Shown here: in pieces, positions 2,457 through 8,323 of the stretch
How the letters are laid out: each line of letters opens with the position of its first letter
Numbering within the stretch: position 1 is the stretch's first letter
Virus genome (UHGV): UHGV-0142298
DNA: 37,340 bases
Direction: 5' to 3' (one strand)
Source: a virus
Notes under the pieces: model-generated
The model's input: the letters and a program-made list of their open reading frames with translations, nothing else
Databases searched by the model: none
Told to the model about the DNA's origin: nothing
Position numbers and translations under genes: made by a program

Positions 2457-3079
2457 TGGTTGACTACTTCAATGTATCCTGTATCAACAATGAAAATGTC
2501 CGTTCTTCGCTCACAGAATTAGTGCGACAGCTTCGCACCAAGAGCTGACATTGTAATATCCGACAGGCTATTGCCTGTCAGTTAACAGTTACGTGTTATA
2601 AAAGGTCAGGCGGGATCCTGACTAGGTGTGTTTAAAGAAGTGCTGGTGGTGAGCGGGTGTTGTGTCCAATTTCCACAGAAAAAAATCTGAGAAACTATAC
2701 CCAATAGTTGTATTGAATCACTGACGAGACAGCCTCATATTTATCAGGACTGGTGTACTTCCAATTCAGGAGGTTGTCGTGCTGGTTCTCAAATGTGCGC
2801 TAGCTATTGCGGCTGTAATGGCAATTTATTGTCTTGCTGTTGTTCTTACGGATCGCCTTTCTGATTGATTTTATATTGGCGAGGTGACGTGAGTTAAGTA
2901 GAATTGCTGCGGGTGCTTGAGGCTATCTGCCTCAGGCATGAACACCAACGGCAGATAGAGAAAAGCCCCAGTTAACATTACGCGTCCTGCAAGACGCTTA
3001 ACATTAATCTGAGGCCAATTTCATGCTAGACACATGTAGGTTAGCCTCTTACGTGCCGGAAGGCAAGGAGAAGCAGGCT

Positions 3080-3235
3080 ATGAAGCAGCAAAAGGCGATG
3101 TTAATCGCCCTGATCGTCATCTGTTTAACCGTCATAGTGACGGCACTGGTAACGAGGAAAGACCTCTGCGAGGTACGAATCCGAACCGGCCAGACGGAGG
3201 TCGCTGTCTTCACAGCTTACGAACCTGAGGAGTAA
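3080..3235 (+). CDS. hokD: Hok/Gef-family membrane toxin (type I toxin)
   Basis: 51-aa product MKQQKAMLIALIVICLTVIVTALVTRKDLCEVRIRTGQTEVAVFTAYEPEE has the Hok signature (TM helix, LTRK.LCE.R, EVAAF..YE); the ORF track extends it upstream to 3023 (mok-like leader frame); intrinsic terminator follows. Confidence 0.8.
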   Translation: MKQQKAMLIALIVICLTVIVTALVTRKDLCEVRIRTGQTEVAVFTAYEPEE

Positions 3236-3299
3236 GAGACTAGGCGGGGGAGAAATCCCTCGCCACCTCTGATGAGTCAGGCATCCTCAATGCACCCGC

Positions 3300-3326
3300 G
3301 CTTAACCCGCTTCGGCGGGTTTTTCT
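3300..3326 (+). terminator. Intrinsic terminator downstream of hok
   Basis: AACCCGC-TTCG-GCGGGTT hairpin followed by a T-run. Confidence 0.6.
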
Positions 3327-3336
3327 AGCATCTACC

Positions 3337-3376
3337 TGGTTGACAAAGTCGATGTTAAATGGAAATATGGTTGACA
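3337..3376 (+). promoter_or_regulatory. Direct repeat TGGTTGACA x2 (31 bp apart) overlapping -35-like TTGACA boxes; candidate promoter/operator of the 3402-5158 operon
   Basis: TGGTTGACA at 3337-3345 and 3368-3376, immediately upstream of the ATG at 3402. Confidence 0.35.
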
Positions 3377-3401
3377 CCAAAACAACAAGGATATTACGGT
3401 C

Positions 3402-4016
3402 ATGCAGAATTTATCTCAACAGTTGTTAGAAGCATATGACAAGGAGTGCCGCAAAGAGCTTTCGATCGCGTTAGCACAGGCTTATCTTCATTCGCATATG
3501 AAGGCAAAAGAGTTTGGTTCTTTTTGGGCTCAAGCACAGTCATATTTGCGCTGGTTTTATGCCGATGCATTGCTTGAGAATGCGGCTAAGCGTGTGGGGC
3601 TGGATTTTGAAGTCGGTAGCAATGCTGCTAAAAATTGTAAACACATTGCGATTCACTCGAACAACTGGAAAATGACGGCACATCATTTATCGGGTAATGC
3701 GCCACTTCCTAAGCAGGCATTGTATAGAGCTGTTTACGCTAATCAAAATTATGAATTGAATTTTGGGGATGAAAATGCCGACTCCCTGGATGGGAGAGCG
3801 TCTGGTGGACATGTTTATATGTTACATGATGGCAGTAATCAGCACTTGTCCAAACTGAATTTAACTGTTCCTTCTTCGGATAATTACGGGATTCTTTATA
3901 CTGAGTCTTTACCAATTATGACGATGGTAGAAGTTGAAGCAGAAAATGTGGATTCTGAGATTGAAGATAAAATCAAGATTCTTACCGAACAAATAATTAA
4001 ATCACAGCAATCATGA
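3402..4016 (+). CDS. Hypothetical protein, first gene of a two-gene cassette (candidate effector/partner of the HTH-peptidase)
   Basis: 204-aa ORF; its stop overlaps the next start in ATGA (4013-4016), implying translational coupling; no recognisable domain or TM segment. Confidence 0.55.
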   Translation: MQNLSQQLLEAYDKECRKELSIALAQAYLHSHMKAKEFGSFWAQAQSYLRWFYADALLENAAKRVGLDFEVGSNAAKNCKHIAIHSNNWKMTAHHLSGNAPLPKQALYRAVYANQNYELNFGDENADSLDGRASGGHVYMLHDGSNQHLSKLNLTVPSSDNYGILYTESLPIMTMVEVEAENVDSEIEDKIKILTEQIIKSQQS

Positions 4017-5158
4017 GCATGAATATCGCACAAACACCATTTACTGATAAATCGTTTAATCCTCGTCGCCTTGAGGAGGCAAGAGAGGCAAAAGGGTTGA
4101 CGATGGCTGAACTTGCCAGAGTGCTCAATATTTCAAGACAAGCTATTTCGTCATTTGAGAAGGGGTTGAAGTCTCCCTCTGCTGATACACTTTCTGCAAT
4201 AGCCAAGGTGTTAGGATTTCCAGAACGATTTTTCTTAGCCTCCAGTGCTTCTCCATCTCTGGAGGGGGCGATTCATTTTAGAAGTCGTTCAACTGCGACC
4301 AAAAAGGCTCGAGTTACAGGGAAAACACGTGGGCGTTGGGCGGCATTAATATTGGATGAATGTCTAAAATATGCTCAATTACCAGATGTGGTTCTGCCTG
4401 AATTCGATATTATTGATTTTGAGGTTCTGTCTCTATCTGATATTGAGGATATGTCCACCCAATTAAGGCGTTTTTGGGGGTTAGGTGATGGTCCAATACT
4501 CAATTTAACTAGACTTGTTGAAAATAAAGGAATCGTGGTTTCTCATTTACCTTCTGGTGAGAAAGTTGATGCCTTTTCGTTCTGGCATAATGGGCGGCCT
4601 TTAATTATGTTAGATAGCTCGAAGACGGCTGTTCGCATGCGATTTAGTCTTGCTCATGAACTTGGCCATTTAATTATGCATAGGGCAGTGGAGGATGACT
4701 ACCTGAATGATAAAGAATTATTCGACCTGGTGGAGTTGCAGGCCGATTATTTTGCCTCCAGCTTTTTAATGCCAGCCACCACTTTCGGGCGTGAATTTTA
4801 TAGTCCAAATTTATCAGCGTTAGAACGATTAAAACTACGTTGGATTACATCTATCGGTAGTATTGCCATGAGGAGTCATAGCCTTAAGTTAATCAGCGAT
4901 AATCAGAAAAGCTATATATTTAAGCAATTAGCGCCATTCCATCGTAGGGAGCCGTTAGATGATGCAATCCCAAAAGAAGAGCCTGAGTTACTTAATAAGT
5001 TACTTTTACTTCTTGATAAGCATTCAATCATAAAGGTAACTGAGTTAACTGATATCTTTGCTCTTCCCTTAAATGAGTTATCTGCAATTACACGATTTAA
5101 AGAATCAGATATGATTCATTCTGACAATGTTATTTCATTTACCATAAAACAAAAATAA
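4013..5158 (+). CDS. HTH-XRE DNA-binding domain fused to an ImmA/IrrE-type (M78-like) zinc metallopeptidase
   Basis: N-terminal HTH (LTMAELARVLNISRQAISSFEKG); central HEXXH motif in SLAHELGHLIMH with a downstream acidic/aromatic segment (ELQADYFASSFLMP) typical of ImmA/IrrE peptidases. Confidence 0.75.
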   Translation: MSMNIAQTPFTDKSFNPRRLEEAREAKGLTMAELARVLNISRQAISSFEKGLKSPSADTLSAIAKVLGFPERFFLASSASPSLEGAIHFRSRSTATKKARVTGKTRGRWAALILDECLKYAQLPDVVLPEFDIIDFEVLSLSDIEDMSTQLRRFWGLGDGPILNLTRLVENKGIVVSHLPSGEKVDAFSFWHNGRPLIMLDSSKTAVRMRFSLAHELGHLIMHRAVEDDYLNDKELFDLVELQADYFASSFLMPATTFGREFYSPNLSALERLKLRWITSIGSIAMRSHSLKLISDNQKSYIFKQLAPFHRREPLDDAIPKEEPELLNKLLLLLDKHSIIKVTELTDIFALPLNELSAITRFKESDMIHSDNVISFTIKQK

Positions 5159-5167
5159 TTCTCATTC

Positions 5168-5195
5168 ATACCCGCCTCGGCGGGTTTTTGTTTTA
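5168..5195 (+). terminator. Intrinsic terminator after the HTH-peptidase gene
   Basis: CCCGCC-TC-GGCGGG hairpin plus TTTTTGTTTT; same hairpin family as the terminator after hok. Confidence 0.6.
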
Positions 5196-5505
5196 CGTAT
5201 TCTGGTTTACAATCCACAGGCCAGCCTGAACAACTGGCACCTGCTGCGCCAGCAGAGACAACCGATGGCGCACGATACCAAATTACACAATTCTGATGAT
5301 TCTGCCGTCTTTGCCAGCAGGCACGGGCGGCGCTCTCACGCATTTAAATCTGATTGGTACCAGCATCCCCCATGCACTGAAGAACAGGCCGAATGGCTGA
5401 TTCATTCTTACCGCAGGCGCGGGTTCGAGGTTAAGAAAGCTCTCAGTCTCGACTATCGGCACTGGATAATCTCTGTCAGGCTGCCTTATTCCGAACGCCC
5501 ACCAC

Positions 5506-6153
5506 GTGCGTCCCGCACTTTCCAGCAACGGATCTGGAGGTAACGTGCGGGTATTACTTAGACCTGTTCTGGTGCCAGAGCTTGGGCTGGTGGTCCTTAA
5601 ACTAGGCCGTGAATCCATGCCGGTATTCCACAATACCCGGGTACTGGTGGAGCCGGAACCGAAAAGCATGCGTAATCTGCCGTCCGGGGTCGTTCCTGCC
5701 GTTCGCCAGCCGCTGGTGGAAGACAAAACATTGCTGCCGTTTTTCAGTAACGCACGGGTGATTCGTGCTGCTGGTGGTGCTGGTGCATTGTCTGACTGGC
5801 TGTTGCGCCATATTAAATCCTGCCAGTGGCCGCACGGCGATTATCATCACAGCGAAACCGTCATTCACCGTTATGGTACCGGCGCAATGGTGTTGTGCTG
5901 GCACTGCGACAACCAACTGCGTGACCAGACATCCGAATCACTCGAGCAACTTGCTCATCAAAACCTGTCAGCATGGATGATTGACGTCATCGGTCACGCA
6001 ATAAGCGGTACGCAGGAGCGTGAATTATCTCTGGCTGAATTATCCTGGTGGGCGCTCCGCAATCAGGTGGCGGACGCGCTACCGGAAGCGGTATTACGTC
6101 GTTCGCTGGGATTACCAGCGGAAAATTCATACTATATTAGGAATAGTCCATAA
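5506..6153 (+). CDS. Hypothetical Cys/His-rich protein in the position of a late-gene regulator (possible Q-like antiterminator); start uncertain
   Basis: 215-aa ORF from GTG 5506 (alternative ATG 5620); contains HGDYHH...CWHCDNQ; a second frame (5265-5543) overlaps upstream, so a frameshifted or longer gene is possible. Confidence 0.3.
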   Translation: MRPALSSNGSGGNVRVLLRPVLVPELGLVVLKLGRESMPVFHNTRVLVEPEPKSMRNLPSGVVPAVRQPLVEDKTLLPFFSNARVIRAAGGAGALSDWLLRHIKSCQWPHGDYHHSETVIHRYGTGAMVLCWHCDNQLRDQTSESLEQLAHQNLSAWMIDVIGHAISGTQERELSLAELSWWALRNQVADALPEAVLRRSLGLPAENSYYIRNSP

Positions 6154-6243: not shown

Positions 6244-7203
6244 ATGATAAAAAAACCTGTGATTGGAATCAGCGGTTGTTTGGCCGGTTCTGCTGTTCGT
6301 TTTGATGGTGGTCACAAAAGAGCTGACTTTTTAATGGACAAATTAGTGGAATGGGTAACATTCAGACCAGTATGTCCGGAAATGGCTATAGGGCTGCCAG
6401 TTCCGCGTCCTGCTCTACGTCTTGTGCGCTCGAAGCAAGGAAATATACGGATGTGTTTCAGCCACGACCAGAATGAGGATGTGACAGAGAGAATGACAGA
6501 GTTTAGTCGTTCTTATATGCACAAATTAAAGGATGTATCGGGGTTTGTGGTTTGTGCTAAATCTCCCAGCTGTGGCATGGAGCGCGTGCGTGTCTATGAT
6601 GAAAATGGTAATCGAGGTCGTAAAGATGGAGTGGGACTATTTACGAGCACTTTGATGGAAAAGTTTTCCTGGCTACCGGTTGAAGAGGATGGGCGATTAC
6701 ATGATCCAGTGCTTCGTGAGAATTTTGTTGAAAGAGTTTTTGCTTTGCATGAGCTCAATCACCTTTACAAGGAGAAATTATCAAGAAGAGAGTTATTAGC
6801 TTTTCATAGTCGTTATAAGCTTCAGTTGTTGGCGCATAGTCAGGCAGGCTATAAAGATATGGGACCATTTGTGGCTGCAATACACGAGTGGGCGGACCTT
6901 GAATCATACTTTGAGGTGTATCGTGATAAGCTGATGGCGATTCTCAGAAAACCTGCATCACGTAAAAATCACACGAATGTGCTGATGCATATACAGGGGT
7001 ATTTTAGTAATTACTTAAGTACACGCCAGCGTAAAGAGTTGACCGAGGTTATACTTAACTATCGCTTTGGCACATTGCCTCTTCTTGCGCCGTTGACTCT
7101 GCTGAAGCATTATCTGGGTGAGTATCCTAATGATTACTTGCTTACACAGAATTACTTCGATCCCTATCCGGAAGAACTGGCTCTAAGACTGATGGTGAAT
7201 TAA
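6244..7203 (+). CDS. DUF523/DUF1722-like fusion protein (TudS-like thiouracil desulfidase family candidate)
   Basis: 319-aa ORF with RBS GGGGGAGG; N-terminus KPVIGISGCLAGSAVRFDGGHK resembles the DUF523 Cys-containing signature; family assignment is from memory. Confidence 0.6.
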   Translation: MIKKPVIGISGCLAGSAVRFDGGHKRADFLMDKLVEWVTFRPVCPEMAIGLPVPRPALRLVRSKQGNIRMCFSHDQNEDVTERMTEFSRSYMHKLKDVSGFVVCAKSPSCGMERVRVYDENGNRGRKDGVGLFTSTLMEKFSWLPVEEDGRLHDPVLRENFVERVFALHELNHLYKEKLSRRELLAFHSRYKLQLLAHSQAGYKDMGPFVAAIHEWADLESYFEVYRDKLMAILRKPASRKNHTNVLMHIQGYFSNYLSTRQRKELTEVILNYRFGTLPLLAPLTLLKHYLGEYPNDYLLTQNYFDPYPEELALRLMVN

Positions 7204-7600
7204 CTGTATGCGATATCATCTGAAAGTGATGAGTTCCTGTATGCAGGATATTTACAATCGTAAAAACTACACTATGATACCCATAGTGTCAGTTTGTATA
7301 AAAATCCTGTTCACGCTGAAGAAAACATTGAGATGCAATTTAATGTTGGTAAACATACCAGCCCCAAAAGATTTTATTCAATCTGTTTTTATATGAAGAT
7401 ATTTCAAGTGAATATTAAGAGTATATAATATTATTATTGCACGCAGCTATTATAATATAACAGATTAGTTTAATGATTTGTTTTTTGTGAGTTAAACACA
7501 TGGTTTTATAGTTGTGATGCAATGAGATTTTCCTTATTGTTGAACTGGCGAATATTGATTTTCCACCTATACTTACCTGGTGTAACCCCAGTGATATCAG

Positions 7601-8323
7601 GTGGATAATATGCCATACATATGTTCTGTCATTTTGGTGTTGAACTCGTTTGGTGTCCGAATTGGTAAAGAAGATATTTTGTTTAAAAAAGGAAGTGCTG
7701 TCCTCATCGAATACAATTTAAAAGATCTTTTTTCGTCAAATACAGATCATCTAATGATCGTAGATGTTGAGGAGAAAACAGTTAATGATTTCTTTAAAAA
7801 CTACACACTCTCACCTTTTTCTGTAAGAAGGTTTTATCCGTCATACTTGATAGTAGAATGTGAAGATTTTTCATTGTTAAGGAACTTGGTTGCATGCTTG
7901 AATTGTGATAGCAAAACCGTGGATGTAGTTAGAAATCAAATATCACTTGCATGTCTTGCTGTCTTATCTTCAGAGAAAATAGTGCAAAGTTTTTTGTTCG
8001 GAAGTCTTAATAGCTTAGGTTGTAAAGTTAAGGCTATTATTCACTCGGATATCTCAGCGTCATGGAGACTTTGTGATATATCTTCAAGATTATATATGAG
8101 CGAGAGTTTGTTAAAAAGAAAATTAAAAGACGAAGGATTATCGTTTAGTAAATTAATTCTTGAAGAACGAATGATGATGGCGCAAAGATTATTGATCTAC
8201 AGTAACCATACTGTCGGCAAGGTGGCGGGAATATGCGGGTATGACAATGCATCATATTTTGTAAGTGTTTTTAGAGGATATTTTGGTGTGCCTCCGCACC
8301 AATATTTATCAAGATTTTCTTAG
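7601..8323 (+). CDS. AraC-family transcriptional regulator (cargo gene)
   Basis: 240-aa ORF in a very AT-rich island; C-terminal AraC-type HTH (VGKVAGICGYDNASYFVSVFRGYFGVPPHQY). Confidence 0.75.
   Translation: MDNMPYICSVILVLNSFGVRIGKEDILFKKGSAVLIEYNLKDLFSSNTDHLMIVDVEEKTVNDFFKNYTLSPFSVRRFYPSYLIVECEDFSLLRNLVACLNCDSKTVDVVRNQISLACLAVLSSEKIVQSFLFGSLNSLGCKVKAIIHSDISASWRLCDISSRLYMSESLLKRKLKDEGLSFSKLILEERMMMAQRLLIYSNHTVGKVAGICGYDNASYFVSVFRGYFGVPPHQYLSRFS

Follow-up and report, generated by a model that had tools for sequence, protein, structure and literature searches.

A two-gene cassette of the Rosmerta family in a lambda-like prophage

What is a pair of overlapping genes of foreign composition doing in the early region of a lambda-like Escherichia coli prophage? 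The question is raised by the virus genome UHGV-0142298, of which we analyzed a stretch of 37,340 nucleotides (nt), referred to here as the window. Two genes in it, encoding proteins of 204 amino acids (aa; 3402-4016) and 381 aa (4013-5158), form a cassette on the plus strand, as do all window features for which a strand is implied below. An earlier note, made from the sequence alone, had likened the pair to the RmrT-RmrA proteins of the Rosmerta defense family. Our preferred answer, to which we assign a probability of about 0.72, is that we are dealing with a toxin-antitoxin module of the Rosmerta type (RmrT/RmrA) that is expressed autonomously as a moron of a Qin/Tritos-like lambdoid prophage and acts in abortive-infection defense. 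This is a known and catalogued defense family that standard tools recognize, and not a new system.

The two open reading frames (ORFs) share the tetranucleotide ATGA at 4013-4016, and the coordinates of the overlap were confirmed in the ORF list. The second protein, putatively the antitoxin and repressor RmrA, matches the Pfam families HTH_3 (residues 20-73, nt 4070-4231; E = 2.4e-16) and Peptidase_M78 (residues 170-287, nt 4520-4873; E = 9.7e-19). Its peptidase motif SLAHELGHLIMH is present, with HELGH intact at residues 215-219 (nt 4655-4669), which bears out the earlier description of an XRE-type helix-turn-helix (HTH) fused to an ImmA-type HEXXH peptidase. The protein also matches 14 PADLOC profiles for RmrA, the best of them (E = 5.5e-102) aligning residues 11-380 of the protein with positions 7-381 of the 383 in the profile. 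Over its full length, it is 31% identical (354 residues, E = 4e-41) to the RmrA of the experimentally verified RosmerTA system of E. coli OLC-716, the sequences of which were taken from the supplement of the preprint by Millman et al. Among 68 RmrA homologues, H215, E216, and H219 of the HEXXH motif are invariant and E241, which we take to be the third zinc ligand, is found in at least 90%. Judged on these conserved residues, the peptidase looks catalytically competent.

The first protein, the putative toxin RmrT, matches nothing in Pfam or NCBIfam, so that in these databases it is indeed without a recognizable domain, as the earlier note had it. In PADLOC this does not hold, as the protein matches the RmrT profiles PDLC03933 (E = 7.5e-10) and PDLC03934 (E = 6e-8). 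A HMMER search, exhaustive over 1.84 billion representative proteins, returned only 44 relatives at E <= 0.001, nearly all of them about 200 aa long. All 32 relatives that were aligned match PDLC03933, with a best E value of 5.9e-48, and no consistent Pfam family was found for the 32 family members at E values up to 10. The profile searches in Pfam and PADLOC that the earlier note had proposed thus give the second protein an M78 domain and a full-length RmrA match and the first protein matches to RmrT profiles, and they confirm the likeness to Rosmerta. At the level of sequence, architecture and profile matches together show the cassette to be a member of Rosmerta.

The putative toxin and antitoxin genes travel as a pair

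Toxin relatives that are between 72% and 22% identical to the window protein are each followed by a gene for an HTH and M78 protein of 380-383 aa, usually with an overlap of 4-23 nt. In one locus (L013) the two genes abut rather than overlap, and in another (L012) the gene after the toxin reaches the end of the contig, with its HTH and M78 domains unconfirmed. Across loci, the identities of toxin and antitoxin drop in parallel.

The surroundings of these pairs differ. Two (L005 and L006) lie straight after the cI-type S24 repressor gene of a Yersinia prophage; the slot adjacent to cI is held in lambda by rexAB. Another is in the nin region of a different lambdoid prophage (L007), two are in the interval that separates the Q antiterminator gene from the lysis genes (L017 and L018), and two follow Q, a DNA methyltransferase gene, and tRNA genes for Ile-Arg-Arg (L013 and L019), at a site that we take to be the stx position of Stx phages. 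One pair is located by proBA-like genes on a chromosomal island of Cronobacter (L015), and a distant pair is found inside a dense defense island on a metagenomic contig (L008, 1-10654). These comparisons of gene order and sequence show the putative RmrT/RmrA pair to be a single mobile unit that also occupies other prophage cargo slots and a defense island.

The defense island of the metagenomic contig also encodes HATPase/HD-CE proteins, an Mrr-type nuclease, a DUF3800 protein, BrxR, and Cap15 with a CD-NTase, the last two belonging to a cyclic oligonucleotide-based antiphage signaling system (CBASS). The pairs at the presumed stx position, one of them in E. coli 2013C-3181 (L019, 3097-4853) and the other in L013, have RmrT and RmrA proteins 56% and 65% identical to those of the window. 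RefSeq starts this RmrA at a later codon and so gives a shorter protein, which is probably mis-started.

The cassette is a discrete insertion between two similar terminators

The inserted unit comprises 1,865 bp (3325-5189), as delimited by empty-site alignment and base composition, and contains the putative promoter and operator, rmrT, rmrA, and a terminator of its own. Its left edge is the hokD terminator (ACCCGCTTCGGCGGGTTTTT, 3305-3324; repeat family D3), and its right edge is the cassette terminator (ACCCGCCTCGGCGGGTTTTT, 5170-5189). As the earlier note had seen, these hairpins are of one family; they agree at 19 of 20 positions. Their folds have predicted energies of -13.9 kcal/mol (z = -2.6) for the left copy and -12.1 kcal/mol (z = -4.0) for the right copy, and a simple terminator scan called the right copy and missed the left. 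About 11 nt past each copy stands CTGGTT(G/T)ACAA: the start of the cassette (CTGGTTGACAA, 3335-3346) resembles a stretch of the prophage backbone (CTGGTTTACAA, 5201-5212), and in the empty site CTGGTTTACAA likewise stands 3' of the single terminator, as seen in the junction alignment. Both genes share one promoter region and one terminator.

We constructed an artificial empty site by joining the two flanks through one terminator copy. Of 5,426 complete E. coli genomes, 4,246 contain this sequence, with its one terminator, as a contiguous match, and 41 have the filled site, always at an identity of at least 99%. The filled site is also present in phage Tritos and in 12 IMG/VR contigs, the latter with a toxin identical to that of the window. 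The content of guanine and cytosine (GC) is 39.9% in the insert (3325-5189) and about 53% in both flanks. The cassette is therefore a discrete low-GC insertion of foreign cargo in a lambda-like E. coli prophage, at a position unoccupied in most E. coli, which agrees well with the cargo hotspot in the early region that had been suggested before. In tblastn searches with RmrT, no plasmid matched, and a single one of 50,697 phage records did, that of phage Tritos.

A copy of the Salmonella type, whose toxin is 93% identical, lies in another context without hokD and is bracketed by two copies of a different terminator, ACCCGCTGCGGCGGG (positions 3903 and 5946 in L032, and 1889 and 3932 in L033), the loop of which is unlike that of the window hairpin. 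As a speculation, such a bracketed copy would fit integration by recombination between the terminator of the cassette and a similar resident terminator.

A conserved direct repeat overlaps the cassette promoter

The direct repeat GGTTGACA is present in two copies 31 bp apart in front of rmrT, and no further copy occurs in the 37-kb window. The count alone is within chance, as 41 of 100 shuffled sequences did as well, and the weight therefore rests on the position of the repeats and on their conservation in other loci. Repeat 1 (TGGTTGACA, 3337-3345) includes a perfect -35 hexamer, TTGACA, at 3340-3345. A putative extended -10 element (TGG followed by AAATAT, 3360-3368) begins to the right of it, 17 nt past the -35, and repeat 2 (TGGTTGACA, 3368-3376) covers the predicted transcription start near 3375. 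The Shine-Dalgarno sequence of rmrT, AAGGA, was read at 3387-3391.

In an alignment of six loci whose DNA further upstream is unrelated, the elements GGTTGACAAA of repeat 1, G.AAA of the putative -10 region, and GTTGAC of repeat 2 are invariant and the bases between and after them vary. Three additional IMG/VR loci have the same layout of repeats. The earlier idea that the direct repeat is the operator of the cassette's own HTH protein gains from this strict conservation in unrelated contexts, and is to be amended in one respect, in that repeat 1 doubles as the -35 hexamer of the cassette promoter. A second promoter that starts from repeat 2 was also considered and rejected: no -10 element is conserved 16-18 nt 3' of it in any of the loci, which makes such a promoter unlikely. 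The simplest account of the conservation of repeat 2 is that both repeats are putative half-sites of an operator, probably bound by the HTH of RmrA in autorepression.

Upstream of rmrT in two distant relatives (L008 and L009), inverted repeats with TTGACA (ATTGTCAA ... TTGACAA) are found instead of the GGTTGACA direct repeat. This hints that TTGACA(A) is the family-wide core of the operator and that its arrangement varies.

Expression of the cassette is documented in a natural host. Phage Tritos, a prophage of E. coli strain LF82, carries the cassette at 99.9% identity, and in LF82 lysogens the gene annotated as hypothetical was expressed 30-fold, and the ImmA/IrrE gene 14-fold, over the prophage background (PMC9928086). 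The two genes were called morons in that paper, which never uses the word defense or defence.

Predicted structures of the antitoxin and the toxin

The AlphaFold2 model of RmrA is a single compact body (predicted local distance difference test score [pLDDT] of 89.9, predicted template modeling score [pTM] of 0.88). It has the HTH at residues 17-75, the protease sheet at 175-201, and the HEXXH helix at 206-222. A short strand at residues 88-90 bears F89, which is near-invariant among the 68 homologues, and R90, which is invariant. As a hypothesis drawn from the model, self-cleavage might take place at this linker strand, or the strand might serve as a pseudo-substrate. Sequence searches of the PDB with RmrA gave matches to CapP, ImmR, DdrO, and IrrE, and PADLOC also reported capP and capH. 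IrrE and CapP have a C-terminal alpha/beta sensor domain resembling GAF. Unlike in these proteins, the C-terminal region of RmrA (residues 255-367) is modeled as helices only.

RmrT is predicted to be soluble, as its highest Kyte-Doolittle hydropathy over 19 residues is 0.7 and no segment is hydrophobic. Its model, built from 22 sequences, is less confident (pLDDT of 77, pTM of 0.75) and shows helices in the N-terminal part that lead into a beta-beta-beta-alpha-beta-beta-beta core. The PDB sequence search with RmrT gave no match at E values up to 10, and a Foldseek search of the model against the PDB and BFVD gave nothing significant. The weak, non-significant BFVD matches lean toward PD-(D/E)xK nucleases and are unusable as evidence. 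The residues conserved in the family are N74, N78, H81, T92, H94, R109, N116, H142, P157, and E181; strands 80-86 and 89-95 contain no invariant acidic residue or lysine of the canonical D...(D/E)xK set. Since there is neither a canonical catalytic set nor a significant structural match, the model's weak likeness to a restriction-endonuclease fold, with its alpha-beta-beta-beta-alpha-beta core, is a lead only, and nuclease activity is at most a possibility.

A proposed mode of action and its alternatives

In an uninfected lysogen, RmrA would sit on the two GGTTGACA sites over the -35 hexamer and the transcription start, so that the operon would be autorepressed, and it would keep RmrT harmless by binding, by proteolysis, or by both. 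Certain phage infections might then inactivate or consume RmrA, possibly through self-cleavage at F89-R90, by analogy with CapH/CapP, ImmR/ImmA, and DdrO/IrrE. The freed, soluble RmrT, with its restriction-endonuclease-like core perhaps acting on nucleic acid, would arrest growth before the phage cycle ends, which is abortive infection. Protection would likely be limited to a narrow range of phages.

Several results weigh against a defensive Rosmerta module. The toxin is unrelated to the verified RmrT of OLC-716 (BLASTP E > 2, hhalign probability of 1.4%). As RmrT toxins are diverse in the literature (PMC10440598), this mismatch bears less on membership than on how far the phenotype can be carried over from the verified system, which has only the antitoxin in common with the window cassette. 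The match of RmrT itself to PDLC03933 is partial, covering residues 47-161 only. For RmrA, the NCBIfam model of the spr1629 repressor/antitoxin (NF052239, an equivalog model) scored 187.2 bits, below its cut-off of 335, and by this score the spr1629 antitoxin is a related family of which RmrA is no equivalog. The putative -10 hexamer is poor, agreeing with the consensus at three of six positions, for which reason a simple promoter scan missed the cassette promoter, and the transcription start is likewise a reading of the sequence. Some tested Rosmerta homologues, moreover, protect against few or no phages (PMC12322248).

The last of these points is shared by the idea that the cassette is an addiction module only, which stabilizes the prophage or is simply selfish and protects against no other phages. 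The gene pair is organized like a type II toxin-antitoxin system with the toxin first, the similarly built Vmi480/Vmi470 pair was characterized solely as a toxin-antitoxin system on a genomic island (PMC4671572), Rosmerta homologues can be ineffective on most phages tested (PMC12322248), and the cassette adjoins another module of the addiction type, hok/sok. Set against this, tested members of the family did give phage defense (Millman preprint; PMC10440598; PMC12322248), a distant relative lies in a defense island together with Mrr, BrxR, and CBASS genes, and other relatives occupy classic defense and cargo slots of prophages, one of them beside cI and the other in the interval from Q to the lysis genes. 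We consider addiction alone unlikely, if a credible contender. A regulatory role is very improbable. The HTH-M78 protein would then control induction or neighboring genes in the manner of ImmR/ImmA or DdrO/IrrE, with the 204-aa protein as an accessory factor rather than a toxin. Known pairs of repressor and anti-repressor do have such M78 and XRE domains, but the prophage is already equipped with a LexA-like CI repressor and a Cro of its own, and the cassette is missing from most otherwise similar prophages, and for these reasons we rejected a switch for prophage induction. The varied positions of the pair in prophages, its presence in a non-prophage defense island and a chromosomal island, and the terminator that closes the cassette off also speak against such a role. 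As an explanation of the cassette, a remnant that is decaying or inactive and has no current function is scarcely credible: the prophage of the window has lost its Q antiterminator gene to a deletion of 1,618 bp, but neither ORF is disrupted, their identity across the 41 genomes and 12 IMG/VR contigs is at least 99%, the catalytic and family-conserved residues are all present, and both genes are transcribed in LF82 (PMC9928086).

A bolder version of the Rosmerta assignment would make the enterobacterial RmrT clade a new type of toxin, a soluble protein of restriction-endonuclease fold with an active site rebuilt on N74, N78, H81, H142, and E181. The toxin would be held in check by proteolysis rather than simply bound, RmrA would be a fused sensor in the style of CapH/CapP that cleaves itself at F89-R90 on a phage cue, and ClpP would help to clear the toxin. 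The part played by ClpP is hinted at by a similarly built E. coli prophage module, E101_02645/02644, which makes clpP essential (Rousset 2020 preprint). Taken as a whole, this version seems to us quite unlikely.

Relation to known systems

The RosmerTA system of OLC-716 defends against phage, and deletion of its rmrA was not tolerated or obtained (Millman preprint). Both are operons of two genes in which the toxin gene precedes that of an antitoxin joining an N-terminal XRE HTH to an M78 zinc peptidase; the window cassette differs in genomic context and in the toxin, which in OLC-716 has 239 aa as opposed to 204 aa here and is unrelated. RmrTA of the Gordonia phage Kita gives narrow anti-phage defense (Ernits et al. 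2023, PMC10440598), and the antitoxins of the RmrA type were found to pair with many different toxins (PMC10440598). The Kita system is likewise phage-borne and combines an ImmA-protease antitoxin with a toxin of no known family. In contrast to the window toxin, which has a predicted alpha/beta core, the Kita toxin depolarizes the membrane, to which its C-terminus is targeted. A transmembrane toxin of this kind was ruled out for the window, as its RmrT has no hydrophobic segment. RosmerTA of Streptococcus thermophilus is also narrow, acting on few phages (PMC12322248).

Two further pairs were likened to the cassette by their description and not by sequence: E101_02645/02644 and Vmi480/Vmi470, both with a domainless toxin of about 200 aa encoded 5' and an antitoxin with HTH and zinc peptidase encoded 3'. 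Vmi480/Vmi470, from MGIVmi1 of Vibrio mimicus, is a proven toxin-antitoxin pair with a toxin of 198 aa (Luo 2015, PMC4671572), and its Vmi470 has 362 aa as against the 381 aa of RmrA. CapH/CapP of CBASS, ImmR/ImmA of ICEBs1, and DdrO/IrrE of Deinococcus share with RmrA the combination of an XRE HTH repressor and an M78 metalloprotease domain and provide a mechanistic analogy, the signal-activated cleavage of a repressor. In those systems, however, two proteins control other genes, whereas here a single 381-aa fusion is paired with a toxin. Finally, the cassette resembles morons of the lambda rexAB type as a unit of promoter, gene, and terminator that is expressed in the lysogen and placed between backbone genes, with relatives that adjoin cI; the proteins are unrelated to those of rexAB.

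Rosmerta is widespread, and the action of its toxins, the substrate of its peptidase, and its trigger are questions for which the cassette offers a convenient model native to E. coli. It is small, has its own promoter, and is naturally expressed in LF82, a clinically studied strain of adherent-invasive E. coli (AIEC); its toxin is predicted to be soluble and can be modeled, and its putative operator is sharply defined. Two LF82 morons described as being of unknown function gain a putative one. One defense cassette appears to hop among lambdoid cargo slots, namely the nin region after hokD, the position adjacent to cI, and the Q-lysis or stx position. What is added here is the anatomy of the insertion, the conserved operator candidate, the evidence of expression, the spread over cargo slots, and a weak lead on the toxin fold. 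The picture of bacterial immunity is unchanged by a well-supported annotation and a few mechanistic leads.

Neighboring features in the window

Immediately 5' of the cassette, and outside it, lies a complete type I toxin-antitoxin locus, hok/sok (2911-3235), which places two toxin systems back to back. The toxin gene hokD (3080-3235) was identified in the ORF list and from the RefSeq annotation of identical DNA, and its sok RNA (2911-3085) matches Rfam RF01794 at 115.8 bits, where the gathering score is 59. No other prophage gene of LF82 is expressed as strongly as hokD, which reaches 3,792 times the background (PMC9928086). The stretch from 3244 to 3325, which spans the 3' end of the hok mRNA and the terminator, matches the Salmonella prophage small RNA IsrK over the full length of the Rfam model, though weakly, its 26.1 bits falling below the gathering score of 50; this may reflect chance or a common terminator-type structure.

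The deletion of 1,618 bp mentioned above is a clean one at 6125/6126, relative to a prophage of E. coli Ecol_316 that is otherwise 99.98% identical. It truncates ydfU (DUF968) on the 3' side and removes the genes for the Q antiterminator and a lipocalin, and with the loss of Q the late genes of the window prophage may no longer be switched on. Between the early and lysis regions, at 6244-8323, the window carries extra cargo that encodes a YbgA-family protein, with a 2-thiouracil desulfurase domain and a DUF1722, and an AraC-type regulator.

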